Source of the DNA: Salinispira sp.
Lineage (GTDB): Bacteria; Spirochaetota; Spirochaetia; DSM-27196; Salinispiraceae
Assembly: GCA_965602015.1 (NCBI GenBank)
Contig: OZ271918.1
Coordinates: 800,001-864,000, forward strand
Length of the DNA: 64,000 nt
Direction of reading: 5' to 3'
The notes under the pieces are model-generated. The model did no database searches. It was given only the letters and a program-made list of their open reading frames with translations, and was not told where the DNA came from. Position 1 is the first letter of the stretch; each line of letters begins with the position of its first letter. This document shows, piece by piece, positions 13,534-23,921 of the stretch. A program made the translations under genes and the position numbers.

Positions 13534-14673
13534 CTATCCCTTCCTCATGGTGAGCATGCGAACCGTATTCTGCAGTTCGTGAATCCGTTCTTTTTGGGCG
13601 GCAAGTATCTCTATGAATTCTTCGGTATCCGAGTTCTTCCCGCCCTCCGGCGCGCCGGCCTCTGCCTGCCGGGTAGCCAGATCATTGGAAAGCTCTATGC
13701 GAAGCAGCTCATAGGAATCGCTGTACAGGCTGGTATCCAGGGCCAGATCGGGAAAATCCGGCGACTGGACGATTTTTTGGGCGATCCGGTCGACCTGCAT
13801 GGCCATCAGGCTGTCGGGGGCTTCGATGATATGGGGATTGTGGGCCCGGTAGCTTTTGGCCAGGTCCTCATCGGCCATCACGAATCCCAGGGCTTCAAGG
13901 GAGTAGGTGAGGTTCTTCCCCACGAGGTCGCGAAGGCTCTCGGCGATATTCAGGTCTTCGGAGCTCCGTACCAGGTTCAGTACGAGCTGGGGTTTCAAAT
14001 AGCCCAGAATCCGTTCCGCCCGGTCCGCCTGTACCGGATCCATTTCCCGCATTCCCTTGACTACCGATATGACGCTCACCGGATTGCCCGGCTGCCGCTC
14101 TTTTATTGTCTGGCGGATGTATTTTTCCACCTCGCTGTCCCCGCTGAATGCCCGCATCAGAAAGCGGAAGGTAGTGTTCTTCATAAAACTGTAGGCGTTG
14201 AGTATTGCCCCTACATGGGGGGAGGACACTACGATGCCCGAATTCGAAGCCAGGAAGAAGTCGACGACGTTATTGTTCGCGCCGGAGCCCAGGTCGAGCA
14301 GGATGTAATCCGCCTCTATTCTTTCAATGTGTTTTATTACGCTCCGCTTCTGGGCGAAGGTGATATTCGGCGTGTTGGCAACCAGAACGTCGCCGGGGAT
14401 AAAACGGAGGTTGGGGAAAGGGGTGTCCGACAGGATTTGTTCGAATCCCAGCCTGCGGTCTGATAAAAAGTTACCCAATCCGTAGTTTTTATTCTTGATG
14501 CCCAGCGCAGAGTGGAGGTTAGATCCTCCCAGGTCGAGGTCGATGACCACCGTATTGTAACCCAACTGGCCCAGGCGCACTCCGAGATTGGCGCAGATTT
14601 CGGTTTTGCCCACTCCGCCCTTGCCGCCGGCTATGGGGATTATCTTTGTTGCTCGATTTTGCGTTATAACCAT
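13534..14673 (-). CDS. MinD/FlhG (ParA superfamily) ATPase with C-terminal coiled-coil extension
   Basis: deviant Walker A GGKGGVGKT, DLDLGGSNLH, DYILLDLGSG; C-terminal EILAAQKERIHELQNTVRML. Confidence 0.88.
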   Translation of the reverse strand: MVITQNRATKIIPIAGGKGGVGKTEICANLGVRLGQLGYNTVVIDLDLGGSNLHSALGIKNKNYGLGNFLSDRRLGFEQILSDTPFPNLRFIPGDVLVANTPNITFAQKRSVIKHIERIEADYILLDLGSGANNNVVDFFLASNSGIVVSSPHVGAILNAYSFMKNTTFRFLMRAFSGDSEVEKYIRQTIKERQPGNPVSVISVVKGMREMDPVQADRAERILGYLKPQLVLNLVRSSEDLNIAESLRDLVGKNLTYSLEALGFVMADEDLAKSYRAHNPHIIEAPDSLMAMQVDRIAQKIVQSPDFPDLALDTSLYSDSYELLRIELSNDLATRQAEAGAPEGGKNSDTEEFIEILAAQKERIHELQNTVRMLTMRKG

Positions 14674-14767: not shown

Positions 14768-17398
14768 GTGGAAACTTCTAACAGCAATATGCCTACGGGC
14801 AGCAGAGTCTATCATCTCGACCGCGAGTGCTACGTAATTTACATGGGCAAGGGCGATCGCCAGTACCGGCCGTTCCTGCGCATCGGAACGAGTCCGTTTA
14901 TCCCATCGGATATTCGAAGGCATATCGGATCGGTTGTGCTTCCCGACCGGATGACCGGCGACTACTTTCAGGAAGCCGACTGCCTTGAGCAGCCCATTAC
15001 CCGCAACATGCATTATGTGGGCTCTCCCGAGCTGATAAAGGCGGTCCGCCATTTTATAAGAAAGGATGAAATCGCCCTTCAACCCATTCAGTCGGTGAAG
15101 GACAAACCCGAGGAAACCGGCGCCAAGGTTCACTTCTTTAAAGACGGCAATCTTCGGGTGTTTATGGACGGGCACCGCCTGTTCGACCTGGTTGAACGGG
15201 AGAAAAGCGATAACCACCAGGTTTATCAGTACCGGCGGCTTTGCGAGCTCATCGAAAGTGATACCCATGCTTTTACTGAGGCGGATTTTGAGGATCCCGG
15301 CTTTATTCCCATGGACGGACCCGAGGTGTTTGGATTTGCCAACGGCATTATTGAGATCCACGGTACCGGAGGGGCGAGCGCCGCGCGGCTGGTTTCCCGG
15401 CTGCTGCCCCTGACCCTTGTTCGGCGCTTCGGAGCCCGGGCCAACCGGGACGCCATGTTCTCCCTGGTGAAATGGCACCATGTGGAAAACCGTTCAATCG
15501 AATTCGTTCTCGAAGACCTGAACACCAAAACCGGCCCGACCAGCGACCTCGAGGCCGATCTGTTGGAAATGCTGGACCATATACACGCCAAGGCCAAGGC
15601 AAAACCCGGCCTCGATCTCCCAGCGCCCGCACCCGCCGCCTTTGTCAAAGCCGCATTCGGATCGCGAGTTGACAGTCAGGCCGACGGCCAAACCGACGCA
15701 CAGGCAACGGGCAAATCCGGCGGTGCAATTTTCAACCGCCTGGATCTGCAGGCCGGAGATCCAGGCGGTTCCACTGAACTCTTCCTCGCCGAGGGACAGA
15801 CCTGGCACGGAGGCCGTGAGCCGGCCTTGTTCACCGGGGTTCCGGTACACATCGGCAGTGCTGGAGACGGCCTGTGGAAAAAGGCCGTTTCAGACTCACA
15901 GGAGAGCCTTTCGCGCCTTATGGGCAGCCAGCACCTGGCGGCCATTGAGCAGTTTTCCGGCTATGACGAGAGCGCGAAGCAGCGGCACATCGGACAGCTT
16001 CTCAGTGAGAGCGAGGATCCGGTGGGCCGGCTGGCAGCCCTGCTGTGGATCTGGAACGATCAATATCTTCACGAAGTTGCCGGCGGGTCGCTGTTTAGCT
16101 CCGCGCAGATAGGCCTCATGGCCTCCCTGCAGGATGAGCAGATATTTCCCCTCATCGGCCGTCTGGTGGACAGCGGCGAAGGTTGGGTGACGGTGTACCG
16201 CCTCACCAAAGATATCACCCGAAGCGAACTGCGCCAGCGGCAGCAAATCGTCGAAAAAATCCAAAAACTCCTCGCCTGGAATGACCCCAGGTCCGACTAT
16301 GAAGCCGACCGCCAGCGGCTGAGCGATACCCTAAAAGCCCTCCTGGCTTCAAAGAGCCTTCACAGCAGCAAGCCGAAGCCCCACGCTGCCGCCGACTCTT
16401 CGGCGCAGTCGGACGAAGCCCAGCCCGCTGATTCCCCGCCGCCCCAAAGCGAAGCGGCTGGCGACGCCGAGGGACGTGCTAAAACCGGAGATGGTCAAAC
16501 CGGGGATGTTAAAACCGCCCAGGATAGCGAACGCGATTCTGCAAGCCGGGAAGGTTCGACGGCGTCAGGCGGTGAATCTTCTATCGCCGCAGGCCGCGGA
16601 ACCGCCGATGCCGCCGATCGTGGGTCTTCCGGAAGCGCTGCCTCAGACGCGATTGACGGATCCGGACGCTCGCCCTGGGGAAGCATACTCCTGGGCATCA
16701 TCCTCATAGGCATAATCGCCGTTCTTATATGGCTCATCTTTTTCAGGCAGCCCGTTCCCCCATCCGAAGCTGCCGGCGGCGGCCAGGCTGCGGCGCAGCA
16801 GGAGTCTCCCGCCGATCCGGACGGCGGGGAAACCGGAGCCGGCTCACAGGCTGCCGGACCGGGAAGCGCGGCCTCCGATGAGGAAGTCGGCGGCGTTTCC
16901 GGTGAAACCGGCGACGAAGATGCAGAGCAGCCCCCGGAAACCGGCGGCGCTGACGATGGCACAGATGATTCCAGCGAGGCTGCCGATGATCGGGACGGCG
17001 AAGTCTCAGGCGAAAGCGGTGATTCCCAAAGCGGCGAGGACAGAGCTCCGACGGCAATGGGAGATCAGGGCCCCCGGCGGCCGGAGGATGGCCCCGCAAT
17101 GCCCTTCGAGTCGGTCTGGACCATGGCGGAGATTCTGCGGGTGTCGAACTGGATAGCCGGCAACAACGGTTTTGCCCTTATCGGTCAGACCAGCGACCTG
17201 CGCAGAAACCCCGACTGGATTTTTACCGGGAACGTGTTTACCCTTCCCAACGGTGAAAGCTATGAGGTTCGCGACGGGGACATGATCTGGACCATCGCCG
17301 ATGAATATCTCAGCAATGAATTCGAGAATTCCGGCCTGAGTATTGAGGAATTCCGTGAGAATATTACTGACCTGAACTATAATCAAAATGGAAATTAG
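14768..17398 (+). CDS. large bitopic membrane protein with acidic low-complexity linkers and C-terminal LysM-like region
   Basis: single TM (ILLGIILIGIIAVLIWLIFF); D/E/G/S/A-rich flanks; NPDWIFTG and YEVRDGDMIWTIA LysM half-motifs; CTGACA-17-TATAGT upstream. Confidence 0.75.
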   Translation: METSNSNMPTGSRVYHLDRECYVIYMGKGDRQYRPFLRIGTSPFIPSDIRRHIGSVVLPDRMTGDYFQEADCLEQPITRNMHYVGSPELIKAVRHFIRKDEIALQPIQSVKDKPEETGAKVHFFKDGNLRVFMDGHRLFDLVEREKSDNHQVYQYRRLCELIESDTHAFTEADFEDPGFIPMDGPEVFGFANGIIEIHGTGGASAARLVSRLLPLTLVRRFGARANRDAMFSLVKWHHVENRSIEFVLEDLNTKTGPTSDLEADLLEMLDHIHAKAKAKPGLDLPAPAPAAFVKAAFGSRVDSQADGQTDAQATGKSGGAIFNRLDLQAGDPGGSTELFLAEGQTWHGGREPALFTGVPVHIGSAGDGLWKKAVSDSQESLSRLMGSQHLAAIEQFSGYDESAKQRHIGQLLSESEDPVGRLAALLWIWNDQYLHEVAGGSLFSSAQIGLMASLQDEQIFPLIGRLVDSGEGWVTVYRLTKDITRSELRQRQQIVEKIQKLLAWNDPRSDYEADRQRLSDTLKALLASKSLHSSKPKPHAAADSSAQSDEAQPADSPPPQSEAAGDAEGRAKTGDGQTGDVKTAQDSERDSASREGSTASGGESSIAAGRGTADAADRGSSGSAASDAIDGSGRSPWGSILLGIILIGIIAVLIWLIFFRQPVPPSEAAGGGQAAAQQESPADPDGGETGAGSQAAGPGSAASDEEVGGVSGETGDEDAEQPPETGGADDGTDDSSEAADDRDGEVSGESGDSQSGEDRAPTAMGDQGPRRPEDGPAMPFESVWTMAEILRVSNWIAGNNGFALIGQTSDLRRNPDWIFTGNVFTLPNGESYEVRDGDMIWTIADEYLSNEFENSGLSIEEFRENITDLNYNQNGN

Positions 17399-17504: not shown

Positions 17505-19493
17505 ATGTCAGATCTTAACCACAGCCCGAATATATTCCATCCTACGAAACCGTCAGCGGTGGGATCTCGCAACAGTATGGCGCAGGAAGGCCGGGATCAG
17601 AAAAAGGAGTACGACAACCTGGTCCAGGAGGAAACCAACAAAATCCTCAACGTCATCGAGTCCAAGCTTCCGAAGGAAGTTCTCGAGCGCCTCGATATCA
17701 CCGGCGGTCTGAAGGAAAAACTGTACAACTACTTCAACCAGAACTACCAGAACATGTTCAACCGGTATATCACCACCACTGAAGACGAGATGGTGAAGAA
17801 AATCCGGAACTTCATCGACAAGGAAGAGAACAAGGCTCTGGCCCGCTACACTCCGAAAGAAATCGCCAACATGCTTGACGAGATCGCCGGTGCCGACAAG
17901 TTCAATACCGGTGAAATCGAAAAATCCATTGTCAACATGTACGGTCACCTGCAGGGTCACATTCAGCGGGGGATGAACGACCTGGAGAACGACACCAACA
18001 GCCTGCTGAGGCAGAAAACCGACGTCGGTGCTTTTATCCGCGGGGAAAACGCCTACTCGGTTGTGAAATGTGCATTCAAAGACAGTGCGCATCGGCCGAA
18101 AACCGTTACCGATGTAAAGCTCTCGGTCAACATCCTGGACTCCGAGCTCATCAGTCCCATTTTCCAGTATCAGGCTACAGTTGAGTACCTCATAAAGGAT
18201 CAGATCAGCCGGACCATCACCAATCTCATCGATGCGGAAATTGAGAAATATCAGGACGAGCTGATCGACGAGGGCAAGGAAGAGCTCACTGACTCGGAAA
18301 TCATCTTCGAAAAGATGAGACGGGTGCCCACCTTCACCGATGACGACGCGGCGGACGAAACCAGCAAGCGCTACACCTTCCTGGCCAAGGATCTGATGGA
18401 CAAAATCGAAGGGCTCCGGGCGGAAATCGACCCCAGCCAGTTTGACCCCATCAATATCCGGGAAAACTTGAAGAAAATCATCGACATGGAAAATATCCGG
18501 AACCGGGGTTTTAATACGGTGGTCAATTCGCTTACCTCCATTCTGGACACGTCCAAGATGGGTTATCAGTACGTGGAAAACCTCAAGAATGCCCGGGAAC
18601 TTATCGTGCGGGAATATGAGGACACTGACAGCGAGCAGCTGCCCGACGAGCGCTACCAGATCCGGCTGAAGTATTTCGATGCCGATCAGCTCCACAAGGA
18701 ACAGTCTGCCTATGACGCCCAGCTGGAATCTTTCCGCCGGAAAATTCAGGAGCTGTACGATGTGGTCGAGCAGATATATCTGGACCGCCGAAGCCGCTTC
18801 AATGTCAATGATTACGAAGACCTGTCCCGCCGCCTCAAACGGCGCATCGTCCGACGAAAAGACGAGAGCCCCTTCGACGCATCGGGGGATCCCATCGTCG
18901 AGGAATTAAAAAGAGTGTGGAACGAGATCATCGCCCTCAAGGCCGATCTCACCGAGGTCGAGCGGCTGAATCAGACCTATCTCCACGAAAAGGAACTGTT
19001 CAAAAAAATGCTCAGCGCCATCAGCAAGAAGATCGAGAGCATTTTTGGCTTTCAGAATCCCCGTGAGCGGGTCATTCTGGACAACCGGGTGGGTTTCCTG
19101 CGCAAGCAGTTCGATAATTTCGACTACATCATCAACCCCTATCACATCCAGCCGGGGCTGCTGCTAGATATTGACATCGTCAGTATAAAGAGGAAGAAGT
19201 ACACCCTGGGCAGCATGGCCAACGTACTCAACGAATTCCTCCACGGCGTTTCCAAGGGCTTCCAGGATGCGGCGTTCGCGGCATTCAAGCGCCGCCGCTC
19301 AACGGTCCGCGACGATATCGGCATGAGTTTTTCCGCTGACTATGATCGCGGAGGCGAAATGGAAAACATGGGAACCGACACCATTGCGGCGCCCAAGAGC
19401 TCTTCGAGCAGCACCGCCACGGCAGTGAAGGGCCAGGCCGACGTTTCACCGGGTAAAGGCGATATATCCGGCGACGACCTGCAGGAGCTGTAG
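17505..19493 (+). CDS. cfpA: cytoplasmic filament protein A
   Basis: N-terminus [21 protein letters not shown] matches treponemal CfpA as I recall it; [18 protein letters not shown]; strong AAGGAGG RBS. Confidence 0.92.
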
Positions 19494-19498
19494 ACCTC

Positions 19499-20419
19499 AT
19501 GGTCGGTAATTTGGATCTTTTTTCCCGCAGGGCCGGTTTTAATTCGGCCCTGCGGCATTTCAAATTCACCACCGGCCTGATTGAACCGGTTACCCGGGGG
19601 GGCAATATCGCCGACCTCCTCAGGGAAGCCGAACTCAACGGGACAATTATCAAAGAACAGTTTTCACCAATACTTTCTGCGCTTCTCGTGGATAAATTCG
19701 AGTACTCCGTTGAGAGCCGGAACTGTCCGGTTCTTATAGATGATCCTTCAGACATCGTCGGCATTCTGAGCACATGGACGGCATTTCAAATCGTCATCGT
19801 CTATCAGCATCCCGAAGTCGGACCATTTCCCATCAATCCTCGCAATGCCGAATCCTGGGAGGCGGCGCTGCCCATACTCAAGGATGAGCTGATGGTGGCG
19901 TATATCAAAGACCTGAGCGGCAAGCACAGCAGCGAAGATGTCAAAGCGGCCCTCGGTTTGGTTCATGACGTTCTTGCGGGCCTATCGGTTGAAGCACCCA
20001 AAAGTTTTACCGCTTCGGGAGCTCCAAAACCCGCCCCGGCACCGGCCCCCAAACCCGCAGCTCAGGCTGCCGGGAAGCCTAAGGGTGCCTACCGGAAGAC
20101 GCCCCAGTACTCGGTTGTGGTAACCAATGAGCTTTTTCACAACGGAAATGTGGAGGCATGGAAACGCATTATTGCCTCCTATCGTCAGAGCTATCCTGAA
20201 CTGGACGTGCTTATCTACTACGACAATGAACGCATAAAGGACATAAACGCCCTGTTTAAGTGGGGGAAGGTCAAGCACGGAACGCCGATTCTTATATCCG
20301 TGGCCGGCACCAATATAAAAGACGTTTCCAAACTTCAGAGATATCTCTTCGAAGGTGCCAGTCCCCGTTTTGAAAATTTTCTCAAGGGAAGCATTGATCA
20401 GCCCCTTGAGCTCTTCTGA
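19499..20419 (+). CDS. two-domain protein with C-terminal HPr-like domain
   Basis: 5 nt after cfpA; Pro/Ala/Lys linker, then VVVTNELFHNG...DVLIYYDNERIKDINALFKWGKVKHGTPILISVAG aligning by eye with HPr (gene certain, fold inferred). Confidence 0.7.
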   Translation: MVGNLDLFSRRAGFNSALRHFKFTTGLIEPVTRGGNIADLLREAELNGTIIKEQFSPILSALLVDKFEYSVESRNCPVLIDDPSDIVGILSTWTAFQIVIVYQHPEVGPFPINPRNAESWEAALPILKDELMVAYIKDLSGKHSSEDVKAALGLVHDVLAGLSVEAPKSFTASGAPKPAPAPAPKPAAQAAGKPKGAYRKTPQYSVVVTNELFHNGNVEAWKRIIASYRQSYPELDVLIYYDNERIKDINALFKWGKVKHGTPILISVAGTNIKDVSKLQRYLFEGASPRFENFLKGSIDQPLELF

Positions 20420-20434
20420 TCCAGGAGCCATAGT

Positions 20435-23050
20435 ATGAACAGCTTTATCCATTTCGGCGACTCCCTGGGGCCCGAAAAGGGCAGCGAACGGGAAGTCCTC
20501 GGAAGCCGCGGCCGCCGTGCCGTATCCCTGGGCGAGCTGGAAATGCCCATATGCCCGGGTTTTGTGGTGCTTAATGAACAGGTCCAACGCCTTGCCGAAG
20601 ATCCCTCGCCGCTCATAAAACCGCTTAGCGAGTCGGTGGTCGCCATCGAAAAGGTCATGGACAAGAAATTCGGCGGCGGCGACAGTCCGCTTCTCCTGAA
20701 AGCCGTGGAATCTCCCATGCTGAACGTACAGAGTTCGCTGCCTTCGGTTCACCACATCGGGCTCACCGAGAAAACCGTAGAGATAGTCGGAAAAATGACC
20801 GGTGAGAAATTCGCGTATGCGGAATACGCTCATCTGCTGCAGAATATTCTCAAGCTTGAGGTTGCAGCCGTCGGTGAGGACGGCGAAAAAACCGCCTTTG
20901 AAGGCTACATAAAAAAACTCAAAAGCGCGAAGACTAAGGCCGCGGTAGTCAAGGCCATAAGTGAGAATCGGGACCTGCTTCCCGAAGAAGTCTATACCGA
21001 ACCGCTGTTTCAGCTCCAACACGTCATTCAACGGTTTTATCACGCATTGAAGCAGAGCCCCACCAGCGAGGATTCCGCGGTGATGGTTCAGGCCATGGTC
21101 TACGGGAATCTCGGCGAGAGTTCGGCTGCAGGGTATTTTTATACCCACCATATCGTCAGCGGCGAGGACCGGCTGCAGGGGCAGTTTTTTCCTTCGGCTT
21201 TTGACGAGTCGGCGAAAAATGGAAAAGCCATCGATAAAATCGACGCTGGAATCCTGGATTCTCTTAAACTGATAAGCCGGAAACTTGAGGACCACTTCAA
21301 AGAACTCCGCTTCGTGCGATTCGCCGTTGAGGCCGAGACCCTTTGGCTGGTTGATCAGTCATCGGTGCCGAACAAGTCCGCTCAGGCGGAAATCCGCACT
21401 CTGCTCGATCTGCTCGAACGGGGAGTGGTAAATAACGACTATCTCATCGAGAAGGTCAAACCTGGTCGGCTGTCGGAAATCCTTCACCCGACCCTCGATC
21501 CCGACTCGGTTGCTGACTTTCATTGCTTTGACGGCGGCATCGCCGGAGCCGTCGGGGCCGCCATCGGCCGGGTGTACTTCAGCGCCGAAGCCTTGGTGAC
21601 TGCCTTCAGACAGGCTCAACAGGCAGGCGAAGACACCAACATGATACTCGCCATGCCCGCCACCTTCGCGGGAGATGTGAAGGCGATCGAAATTGCCCAG
21701 GGTGTTCTCTCTTCCGAGGGCGGATACGCCTCTCACGCTCCGGTAGTTGCCCGGAGCTTGGGAAAAGTCGCCCTGGTGCGCACCGACGCGGTAATCGGCG
21801 CTAAGTCTCTTGATTTAAACGGAAAGGTCATAAAAGAAGGGGACTACCTCACCATGGACGTGCCGTATTACGAGGAACCCCGTTTATTCGTGGGCAAAGG
21901 AAGCCTCACCAAACCCAGTCAGGAAGAAAGCGGACTCCTTGAGTTCCTTGAGGTCGTCCAGACCAGGATATCGGGAATCGATGTTCACGCGAATGCAGAC
22001 CAGCCGCGGGATGCCCAGCTTTCCCGGAAATTCAACGCCCGGGGCATAGGGCTGTGTCGAACGGAACACATGTTTTTCGACGAGAGCCGCATAAACCGCT
22101 TCAGATACATGATTCTCGCAGATGACACGGAATCCCGGGTGAAATTTCTGGATGATCTGGCCAAGGATCAGACCGGTGATTTCTACGAGTTGCTGAAAAT
22201 TATGGACGGTTTTCCGGTAACCATTCGGCTGCTCGACGCGCCGCTTCACGAATTCCTTCCGGCCGACGATGCCGGCATGAAGGCCTTTATTGCCCAGGCA
22301 AAAAAGGACAAAACCGGGCTGACTGCCAAACACATTACCGAACGAAGCCAGCTTCTGAGAGAATTTAATCCCATGCTGGGCCATCGGGGTATTAGGGTTG
22401 CGATTTCCTATCCGGAAATCTACCGCATGCAGACCCGGGCGATTTTCGAAGCGGCATACAAGCTGCTTGATGAAGGTTTGGATCCCAAGCCTGAAATCAT
22501 GATTCCCCTGGTGATGAACCCCAATGAGCTGAAGGTAGTGCGCAACGGGAAGAAAATCGAAGGCAAACATATATTGGGCATCAGGGACATAGAAGAGCAG
22601 GTGCGTCGATCACATCCCGAAAAGAGCCTGGAGTACTCGGTGGGAACCATGATCGAATTACCCGCCGCGGCGTTAAACGCTTCGTCCATTGCCCGGTACG
22701 CCGACTTCTTTTCCTTCGGAACCAACGATCTGACACAGACCACCTACGGCATCAGCAGGGACGACTTCAATACCTTCTTCTCGGACTACACCGAGTTGGA
22801 CCTGCTGCCCGCCAATCCCTTCAAAGTACTCCAGCCGCAGGTTAAGGAGCTTGTGCAAACCGCTGCCCTGCGCGGACGTATGGTGCGGCCCGATTTGAAG
22901 CTCGGACTGTGCGGTGAACACGGAGCCGAGCCGCAGAACATCGATTTTATCGCCGAGACCGGATTGAACTACGTGTCGGTATCGCCCTACGGCATTCCGA
23001 TTGCAAAACTGGCCATTGCACAAATGAATTTACAGGCAGCCAAAGGCTGA
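20435..23050 (+). CDS. pyruvate phosphate dikinase-like PEP-utilising protein with degenerate nucleotide-binding domain
   Basis: GGYASHAPVVAR phospho-His motif; GIGLCRTEHMFF, IRLLDAPLHEFLP, NPMLGHRG, FSFGTNDLTQ, GLCGEHG intact; N-terminal ATP-site motifs substituted. Confidence 0.9.
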   Translation: MNSFIHFGDSLGPEKGSEREVLGSRGRRAVSLGELEMPICPGFVVLNEQVQRLAEDPSPLIKPLSESVVAIEKVMDKKFGGGDSPLLLKAVESPMLNVQSSLPSVHHIGLTEKTVEIVGKMTGEKFAYAEYAHLLQNILKLEVAAVGEDGEKTAFEGYIKKLKSAKTKAAVVKAISENRDLLPEEVYTEPLFQLQHVIQRFYHALKQSPTSEDSAVMVQAMVYGNLGESSAAGYFYTHHIVSGEDRLQGQFFPSAFDESAKNGKAIDKIDAGILDSLKLISRKLEDHFKELRFVRFAVEAETLWLVDQSSVPNKSAQAEIRTLLDLLERGVVNNDYLIEKVKPGRLSEILHPTLDPDSVADFHCFDGGIAGAVGAAIGRVYFSAEALVTAFRQAQQAGEDTNMILAMPATFAGDVKAIEIAQGVLSSEGGYASHAPVVARSLGKVALVRTDAVIGAKSLDLNGKVIKEGDYLTMDVPYYEEPRLFVGKGSLTKPSQEESGLLEFLEVVQTRISGIDVHANADQPRDAQLSRKFNARGIGLCRTEHMFFDESRINRFRYMILADDTESRVKFLDDLAKDQTGDFYELLKIMDGFPVTIRLLDAPLHEFLPADDAGMKAFIAQAKKDKTGLTAKHITERSQLLREFNPMLGHRGIRVAISYPEIYRMQTRAIFEAAYKLLDEGLDPKPEIMIPLVMNPNELKVVRNGKKIEGKHILGIRDIEEQVRRSHPEKSLEYSVGTMIELPAAALNASSIARYADFFSFGTNDLTQTTYGISRDDFNTFFSDYTELDLLPANPFKVLQPQVKELVQTAALRGRMVRPDLKLGLCGEHGAEPQNIDFIAETGLNYVSVSPYGIPIAKLAIAQMNLQAAKG

Positions 23051-23081: not shown

Positions 23082-23116
23082 AAAAACCGCGGGGTGCAAT
23101 CACTCCGCGGTTTTTT
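23082..23116. terminator. bidirectional intrinsic terminator
   Basis: AAAAA-CCGCGGGGTG-CAAT-CACTCCGCGG-TTTTTT between convergent genes. Confidence 0.8.
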
Positions 23117-23921
23117 CTATTTCATCACATAAACCGGACAGGGCTTTCAGCAGATATAGTTTGATGAGGGTCTCCGGAACGTAGCAGCTCTTGGGAAAAT
23201 TCGACAGGAGGAACATGAGGTTTTTCTCTGCGGCCGAGCGTGCTCCCGGGCATATCAGGCCTTGCTGTCTTTCCATTTTTAACAGGCCTCGATAAATCGC
23301 CCGGTCGAGGGAGGTGCTGCCGAGGCGATATAGCTTTTGGGCTTTCGCTTCGTCACCGATGTATACCTGATGCTCTTTTGGTTTGATCAGGAGGTTTTCA
23401 TAGAAGGCCTGGGCAAAGTCCCGTATACCCCGGATTTGCCGGTGCTGGATGGCCGACCCGGGCATTTCTCCGCAAAGAGCCAGGCTTTCGATGACGTGAG
23501 ACAGCTTGCGCATGAGAGCCCGGTAGCGCTGCCGCATGCTGCCCTCTTGCCGAAGATAAATCTTATCCATGCCTTCAACGTAGTAGCTGTGAATAAGATC
23601 GAGAATCATATCGTAAATATTGGCAATTCTCGCCTGGGTACCCAGGGAGTACCCCGAGTCCTGGGTGCTTTCGGGCTGGCTTTCCTCGTTTTCCCGGGAT
23701 TCGGCGCTTGCTTCGAGGCTCTCCTGGTATGCCAGTATGGCCTGGTACGCTTCAGTCAGCCGAATGGTCATCTGGTGTGACCAGTCGCTTCGGTGGCTGT
23801 TCAGATCCGGGTGATACTTTATCAGCAGCCGTTTGTACGAGGCGTTGATTTCCGCGGGAGAAGCGCTTTGCTCAATTTGGAGTATTTCGTAGGCTGCACT
23901 GACTTTCATCACTTTTTTCAT
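23100..23921 (-). CDS. J-domain (DnaJ-like) protein
   Basis: AYEILQI...EINASYKRLLIKYHPD...LTEAY; unknown helical C-terminal region. Confidence 0.85.
   Translation of the reverse strand: MKKVMKVSAAYEILQIEQSASPAEINASYKRLLIKYHPDLNSHRSDWSHQMTIRLTEAYQAILAYQESLEASAESRENEESQPESTQDSGYSLGTQARIANIYDMILDLIHSYYVEGMDKIYLRQEGSMRQRYRALMRKLSHVIESLALCGEMPGSAIQHRQIRGIRDFAQAFYENLLIKPKEHQVYIGDEAKAQKLYRLGSTSLDRAIYRGLLKMERQQGLICPGARSAAEKNLMFLLSNFPKSCYVPETLIKLYLLKALSGLCDEIEKTAE

Follow-up and report, generated by a model that had tools for sequence, protein, structure and literature searches.

What might be the function of a hypothetical protein that spirochaetes encode between a cytoskeletal filament gene and a gene annotated as a glycolytic enzyme? 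In the window analysed here, a stretch of 64,000 nucleotides from Salinispira sp., a gene for a 306-aa protein starts 5 bases after the stop codon of cfpA, which encodes cytoplasmic filament protein A, and ends 15 bases before a PPDK-like gene (Table 1). CfpA has roles in cell division and chromosome segregation. The 306-aa protein belongs to the TP0747 family, as indicated by its match to the Pfam 38 model PF27497 (TP_0747_N), its length within the range of ~300–350 aa and its position between cfpA and ppdK. A search with this query returned more than 3,000 relatives at E ≤ 0.001, and PF27497 was found on the query and on all 120 matches listed, among which the nearest named relatives come from Salinispira and Spirochaeta. 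A member of the same family stands in the same order, cfpA – hypothetical – ppdK, in T. denticola (TDE0842–TDE0843–TDE0844), whose locus differs in nothing of kind from the one described here, and these three genes are repressed together (PMC3914990). The treponemal PPDK, TP0746, has been interpreted as catalysing the final ATP-yielding reaction of glycolysis (PMC10013896). No description of the cfpA–TP0747–ppdK system was found in the open-access literature searched, including passages of PMC10013896, PMC3914990 and PMC2405797, and a search for TP0747 by name found no open-access paper. The positions that the initial annotation had given for the open reading frame, His214 and Asp248 proved correct.

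Table 1. Features of the cfpA–TP0747–ppdK locus, with positions in the window
Feature	Position	Strand	Basis or remark
cfpA, cytoplasmic filament protein A	17505–19493	+	NF040882, 1118 bits
TP0747-family gene, 306 aa	19499–20419	+	in order: helices, His-less HPr fold, Pro/Ala linker, His-bearing HPr fold, conserved tail
N-terminal four-helix segment, residues 5–66	19511–19696	+	candidate CfpA or dimer contact
Second HPr-fold domain, without active-site His, residues 69–162	19703–19984	+	VIA-align
Flexible Pro/Ala linker, residues 175–195	20021–20083	+	pLDDT < 50; least conserved segment
C-terminal HPr-fold domain (predicted), residues 201–289	20099–20365	+	AF2 model, VIA-align, Foldseek
His214 (CAC), His15 equivalent, predicted phosphoacceptor	20138–20140	+	residue preceding helix A; conservation
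Gly216 (GGA), Arg17 position	20144–20146	+	conservation compared with true HPr
Asp248 (GAC), Ser46 position, helix-B N-cap	20240–20242	+	residue preceding helix B
C-terminal tail, residues 290–306: extra helix and terminal Leu-x-Leu-Phe	20366–20416	+	conserved, absent from HPr
Divergent PPDK paralogue, 871 aa	20435–23050	+	His swivel and PEP barrel kept; ligands of the ATP-grasp domain missing
His434 of PPDK paralogue (His455 equivalent), predicted phosphodonor	21734–21736	+	
Terminator-like hairpin, 15 pairs, closing the cfpA–TP0747–ppdK run	23082–23115	+	pattern match; total count not above shuffles

The surroundings of the three genes are also recurrent. Directly upstream of cfpA lies a gene (14768–17398, + strand) whose 876-aa product has a single predicted membrane segment and, at its C-terminus, a weak LysM-like match; this upstream position is conserved in most close loci, and the protein is a candidate envelope anchor of the filament. 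A MinD/ParA-type ATPase gene (13534–14673, − strand) and a gene for a DnaJ-domain protein (23100–23921, − strand) flank the locus in many relatives and are found together downstream where one side is rearranged. A promoter-like site at 17355–17383 was set aside as being at chance level (6 found against 3.9 ± 2.3 in shuffles).

The initial annotation had proposed an HPr-like C-terminal domain. By sequence comparison alone, this resemblance is barely beyond chance. The HPr family model PF00381 did not match the 306-aa protein in Pfam (E ≤ 1), NCBIfam and the ESM Atlas offered no route from it to HPr, and the PDB sequences held no HPr match at E ≤ 10, while a search of the same genome for HPr led to three other genes and not to this open reading frame. 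Alignment by hhalign of the family profile with 32 spirochaete HPr sequences scored 14.6 (E 0.06), which was matched by one of 60 column shuffles. Residues 198–306 modelled alone (AF2, 85-row alignment) gave a pLDDT of 93.6 and a pTM of 0.88, and DSSP of this model places strands at 204–207, 235–241, 244–246 and 263–270 and helices at 215–231, 249–256 and 276–286, with an extra helix at 289–294, which is the strand-helix-strand-strand-helix-strand-helix order of HPr. When the model was compared with 48,161 chains by VIA-align, HPr took the top four places (best Z 7.7, rmsd 2.1 Å, 78 of 85 residues aligned) and the next fold followed at Z 5.9; in Foldseek, the top five matches were HPr (best E 5e-3, probability 0.94–0.99, none at E ≤ 0.001). 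Sequence identity in the structural matches to HPr was 8–22%. Because a VIA-align Z below 8, such as the 7.7 found here, can reflect a common arrangement, the HPr assignment leans on the agreement of two aligners and on the residue register, which was taken from DSSP of the model for both His214 and Asp248. In the full-length model the C-terminal domain folded less well, and VIA-align put HPr onto residues 69–162 instead. The C-terminal domain is predicted to have the HPr fold, a proposal borne out by the modelled structure, with HPr as the top match in both aligners and the register in agreement, and only marginally by profile similarity.

The N-terminal part, which had been regarded as unrecognised, turned out to correspond to PF27497 and to comprise a helical segment and a second HPr fold. 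Residues 69–162 of the full-length model aligned with HPr at Z 10.3 (rmsd 1.9 Å, 80 residues aligned), so that the likeness to HPr is greater here than in the C-terminal domain. The histidine before the first helix is not conserved in this domain (at most 4 of 71 sequences in columns 74–87). The hhalign score of this middle domain against HPr, 15.9, was reached by one of 60 shuffles, and that against the C-terminal domain by seven of 60; neither is significant, and an internal duplication is therefore not shown by sequence. Residues 5–66 are helical and gave generic helical matches alone (Z ≤ 6.3). At the other end of the protein, a beta-clamp motif considered in the C-terminal tail was dropped since its Gln is not conserved.

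The register of the modelled C-terminal domain puts the residues of interest where they would be expected in HPr. Asp248 immediately precedes helix B, where Ser46 lies in HPr, in agreement with the placement proposed earlier. His214 directly precedes helix A, as does His15 in HPr (PMC8509676). The claim of a conserved histidine at this site holds for close and distant relatives: His214 is present in 119 of the 120 close proteins listed (one gap), at 130/130 genome loci and in 87 of 91 distant representatives (50% clustering), the other four being without His. These 91 were obtained from an HMM search of 1.84 billion representatives, which gave 129 hits, after removal of two spurious hits (repeat/methyltransferase proteins), 12 short stand-alone proteins and 24 sequences not spanning both sites; Pfam found no HPr among the 22 of the 129 hits that were scanned. 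The absence of Arg17 was likewise upheld, as the corresponding position 216 is Gly in 87/91 and Arg in 0/91 representatives, against Arg in 32/32 true HPr. One of the three true HPr genes of the same genome (G000:C1:1075749-1076054, L082) encodes His15 and Arg17 together with a natural Asp46, the single case among the 32 HPr sequences.

The proposal that Asp248 resembles the S46D phosphomimic did not survive. Although the residue is near-invariant among close relatives (120/120 and 124/130), 51 of the 91 distant representatives have Asp, 30 have Asn and 10 have other residues (Ser in one), a helix N-cap pattern, and the phosphomimic reading was rejected on the Asn present in 30/91; the exchange of Asp for Asn fits a helix cap instead. 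Insulation from HPr kinase stands in a plainer sense, since the site is without Ser or Thr in 90/91 representatives and offers no hydroxyl to HprK, which is encoded in the same genome. Among 71 full-length sequences, the mean share of the commonest residue is 0.92 in the His loop and helix A and 0.73 in helix B, against 0.53–0.61 in the remainder of the C-terminal domain and 0.37 in the His-less domain. The conservation peaks of the C-terminal domain are the face that HPr uses for its partners, and it is with helix A and the adjoining loop that HPr binds Enzyme I (PMC8509676). Residues near His214 vary just as little (Asn217 in 91, Asn210 in 89 and Glu219 in 89 of 91), and conservation alone therefore does not prove phosphorylation.

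The protein encoded next door is a plausible source of the phosphate. Judged from its sequence, the PPDK paralogue falls outside both canonical PPDK and Enzyme I: it scores 633 bits against TIGR01828, below the cut-off of 843, and 123 bits, through the barrel only, against TIGR01417 (Enzyme I; cut-off 342), and Pfam finds in it no PF05524, the helical HPr-binding domain of Enzyme I. The motifs were surveyed in 90 copies, with the numbering of the C. symbiosum enzyme checked on the 1dik sequence. In common with PPDK, the paralogue has the three-domain length, the equivalent of His455 (His in 89/90 copies, one masked) and all PEP-barrel motifs, with CRTEH, IRLLD, MIE, GTND and CGE essentially invariant. 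It departs from PPDK, apart from its score, in the loss of Arg92 (Val in 77, Ala in 9, Leu in 3, Ile in 1) and of Glu323 (Arg in 68, Lys in 22), the change of Lys22 to Arg in 90/90, the deletion of the GEDVVAG loop and the change of Thr453 to Ala or Ser, and Arg is not among the five commonest residues in the column of Arg337. Lys22 and Arg337 also have roles in the ATP site of PPDK. In the plant enzyme, ATP is bound directly by Arg95 and Glu324 (PMC5507339), which by their motifs would map to Arg92 and Glu323; nothing on mutant PPDK residues was found in the open-access literature. PPDK and Enzyme I share a homologous PEP barrel and His transfer (PMC5371819). Since the ATP site is lost and the PEP site and His are kept, the paralogue would be an Enzyme I-like donor; having a PEP site and a His and lacking a nucleotide site, it is predicted to be, in chemical terms, an Enzyme I seeking a His acceptor. 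In its N-terminal pocket, Arg25, Lys89, Arg292, Gln308 and Ser315 are invariant, and Arg25, Lys89, Arg292 and Arg/Lys295 are invariant basic residues gained in the former ATP cleft. The genome also encodes a separate canonical PPDK, a pyruvate kinase and three HPr, besides two PEP synthase-sized and two Enzyme I-sized genes, so that glycolysis does not depend on the paralogue. By family and gene order, TP0746 probably belongs to the same divergent PPDK class.

Of the 90 copies, 62 have Ala and 27 have Ser at the Thr453 site of the paralogue (residue 432, 21728–21730). Thr453 is the regulatory Thr of PPDK, through which the PPDK regulatory protein acts, so that most copies would escape this control.

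The distribution of the genes supports the earlier suggestion that the protein is dedicated to its neighbour. Among 251 genomes of the phylum, the TP0747 family occurs in 87 and cfpA in 87, with 86 shared, and the divergent PPDK was found in exactly the 87/251 genomes with the TP0747 family, its class limit of 142 bits having been set after the gap was seen (next hit 115). In a synteny sample of 100 loci, counted where the flank sufficed, cfpA lies directly upstream of the TP0747-family gene in 90/92 and the PPDK paralogue directly downstream in 96/97 loci; the two locus sets may share species. Five small genomes (G068, G075, G089, G121 and G156), the flanks of which were read for G089 alone, keep all three genes, though on different contigs. 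As kin are not independent, this co-occurrence is suggestive and does not amount to independent evidence. The Enzyme I N-terminal domain PF05524 was found in 249/251 genomes and HPr in 61/61, and the pair of TP0747-family protein and paralogue is therefore no substitute for a missing PTS; the same count rules out that the paralogue serves ordinary HPr in treponemes without Enzyme I. Most carriers of the paralogue also have a second, canonical-type PPDK. In one genome (G005), two further full-length paralogues of cfpA lie elsewhere than at the main locus (C69:22694-24508 and C102:30441-32243), and the 1.1-Mb genome G088 has two PEP-barrel genes only, for an Enzyme I-type protein and a divergent PPDK, and no pyruvate kinase match.

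Two more distant groups extend the picture. In seven divergent metagenome loci (L192–L198), the order cfpA–family–ppdK and His214 are kept, and the five complete paralogues all keep the swivel His. The proteins of this group are shorter and have Tyr after the His, and the paralogue of L195, with 771 aa, has a deletion in its N-terminal domain. Stand-alone homologues of the C-terminal domain of ~120 aa (L170–L191) are without His at that site. They adjoin an AICAR transformylase (PF01808) gene in 21/22 loci (e.g., L190:7737-8342), and neither cfpA nor the paralogue was found in their sequenced flanks. In five of the loci scanned, they precede a ubiE-type methyltransferase gene. The stand-alone His-less homologue is possibly an HPr-fold regulator of purine synthesis.

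These observations suggest a private Enzyme-I/HPr-like relay encoded with CfpA, in which His214 of the C-terminal domain takes phosphate from the PEP-loaded His434 of the paralogue, a reading that we hold to be narrowly probable. PEP would load His434 with release of pyruvate, following the chemistry of PPDK and Enzyme I, for which the motifs are seen in the sequence, and, with the ATP-grasp ligands lost, the phosphate presumably could not pass on to AMP/PPi. The swivel domain would then turn to the former ATP cleft, now basic, where the HPr-fold domain would be docked, and His434 would meet His214. The docking face of the C-terminal domain, without Arg17 and with invariant acidic residues (Glu211, Glu219 and Glu244 are kept), may form a charge-reversed interface that would also keep the domain from pairing with Enzyme I, which would explain the insulation better than Asp248 does. 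In the last and least supported step, the phospho-state of His214 may let the CfpA filament sense the PEP/pyruvate ratio through the linker-tethered N-terminal half. Against the relay stand the loss of Arg17, which is invariant in true HPr (32/32), the four of 91 representatives without His, and the invariant N-terminal pocket of the paralogue, which might instead accommodate a small molecule as acceptor. The supplementary tables of a T. pallidum two-hybrid screen list TP0747 with five low-score, promiscuous preys, neither CfpA nor TP0746 among them, and TP0746 is absent from these tables (PMC2386257). A more far-reaching version, in which the locus encodes a second, independently assembled PEP:protein phosphotransferase whose PPDK ATP domain has been turned into a dock for a tandem-HPr protein, coupling the PEP/pyruvate ratio to the filament, is attractive, and we would lean slightly against it; on that version, the treponemal gene annotated as a glycolytic PPDK would encode a signalling enzyme.

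Much of the same evidence could be accommodated by a non-catalytic docking or regulatory subunit, the HPr folds of which tether the paralogue to the CfpA filament, with His214 as a structural helix cap in a binding patch. HPr folds serve as binding modules in Crh and in HPr bound to Rsd or glycogen phosphorylase. The fully invariant motif in which His214 is embedded, the absence of Arg17 and the second HPr fold without His would all be expected of such a subunit, and the persistence of His-less stand-alone homologues beside another enzyme gene (21/22 loci) indicates that the His can be dispensable in this fold family. However, the His is kept beside the paralogue (7/7 of the divergent loci L192–L198) and lost in the stand-alone group, and the paralogue has a strongly conserved PEP site and His and no evident nucleotide acceptor; we consider this explanation unlikely, if deserving of serious attention.

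The remaining explanations look elsewhere for the acceptor or the donor. The paralogue may still act in metabolism, its acceptor pocket rebuilt for another nucleotide, phosphate or a small molecule, with the TP0747 protein as its accessory subunit or as an intermediate carrier to that acceptor. The invariance of Arg25, Lys89, Arg292, Gln308 and Ser315 in the N-terminal domain fits such a pocket, TP0746 has been taken as 'most likely' an ATP-forming glycolytic Ppdk (PMC10013896), and in G088, where the paralogue is the sole PPDK-like gene and pyruvate kinase was not found, a metabolic role is favoured. Yet Glu323 (to Arg/Lys) and Arg92 (mostly to Val/Ala) are both lost in 90/90 copies, most carriers have the second, canonical-type PPDK, and the phyletic pattern tracks cfpA and not a need for PPDK, which makes a metabolic enzyme improbable. 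Phosphate transfer between histidines is reversible. It is thus conceivable that the protein is an output of the housekeeping PTS, with Enzyme I or HPr phosphorylating His214 and the paralogue acting downstream, or with the flow reversed from His214 through His434 to pyruvate to make PEP, and the partners for this are at hand in nearly all genomes (249/251 for the Enzyme I N-terminal domain, 61/61 for HPr). We regard it as very improbable, because two residues of the face that binds Enzyme I (PMC8509676), Arg17 and Pro18, are replaced and because the family, in 87 genomes, tracks the paralogue and not Enzyme I.

The proposed relay would resemble the pair of HPr (PtsH, PF00381) and Enzyme I (PtsI) in several respects. 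The C-terminal domain is predicted to be the same open-faced beta-sandwich, with the same order of strands and helices and a His before helix A, its conservation is centred on helices A and B, and its likely donor has the same PEP barrel/His-swivel chemistry. In contrast to HPr, it has no Pfam match, has Gly in place of Arg17 and Asp or Asn in place of Ser46, and is part of a protein with two tandem HPr folds, a helical N-terminus and a C-terminal tail. It is not a member of PF00381, as it lacks the model match, Arg17 and Ser46 and shares the predicted fold and the His. Unlike Enzyme I, the donor is PPDK-derived, with an ATP-grasp N-terminus in place of the helical HPr-binding domain, and no Enzyme II is linked. 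Crh, NPr and the double-HPr FPr of Haemophilus are HPr-fold paralogues of regulatory or tandem type, NPr having a dedicated donor. Unlike the domain described here, they can be recognised as members of PF00381, and they depend on donors of the Enzyme I type or on HprK. The nearest precedent on the donor side is VadK (Rv1127c) of mycobacteria, a PPDK-derived histidine kinase that autophosphorylates from ATP (PMC13400623). Both would be cases of a PPDK repurposed as a regulatory phospho-His protein, here by prediction, and they appear as mirror images, since VadK keeps the ATP-binding and His domains (PMC13400623), whereas the paralogue, its ATP ligands lost, has retained the PEP barrel and the His and is encoded together with an HPr-fold partner.

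The relay assigns a testable function to a hypothetical protein that is kept in about a third of the sampled genomes of the spirochaete phylum, and it points to the TP0747-family protein and its neighbour as the first concrete candidates for regulating the CfpA filament. If the relay is true, an Enzyme-I-like chemistry would have been re-invented from PPDK, and the treponemal 'PPDK' beside cfpA would have to be re-annotated, which would alter metabolic models of these bacteria.
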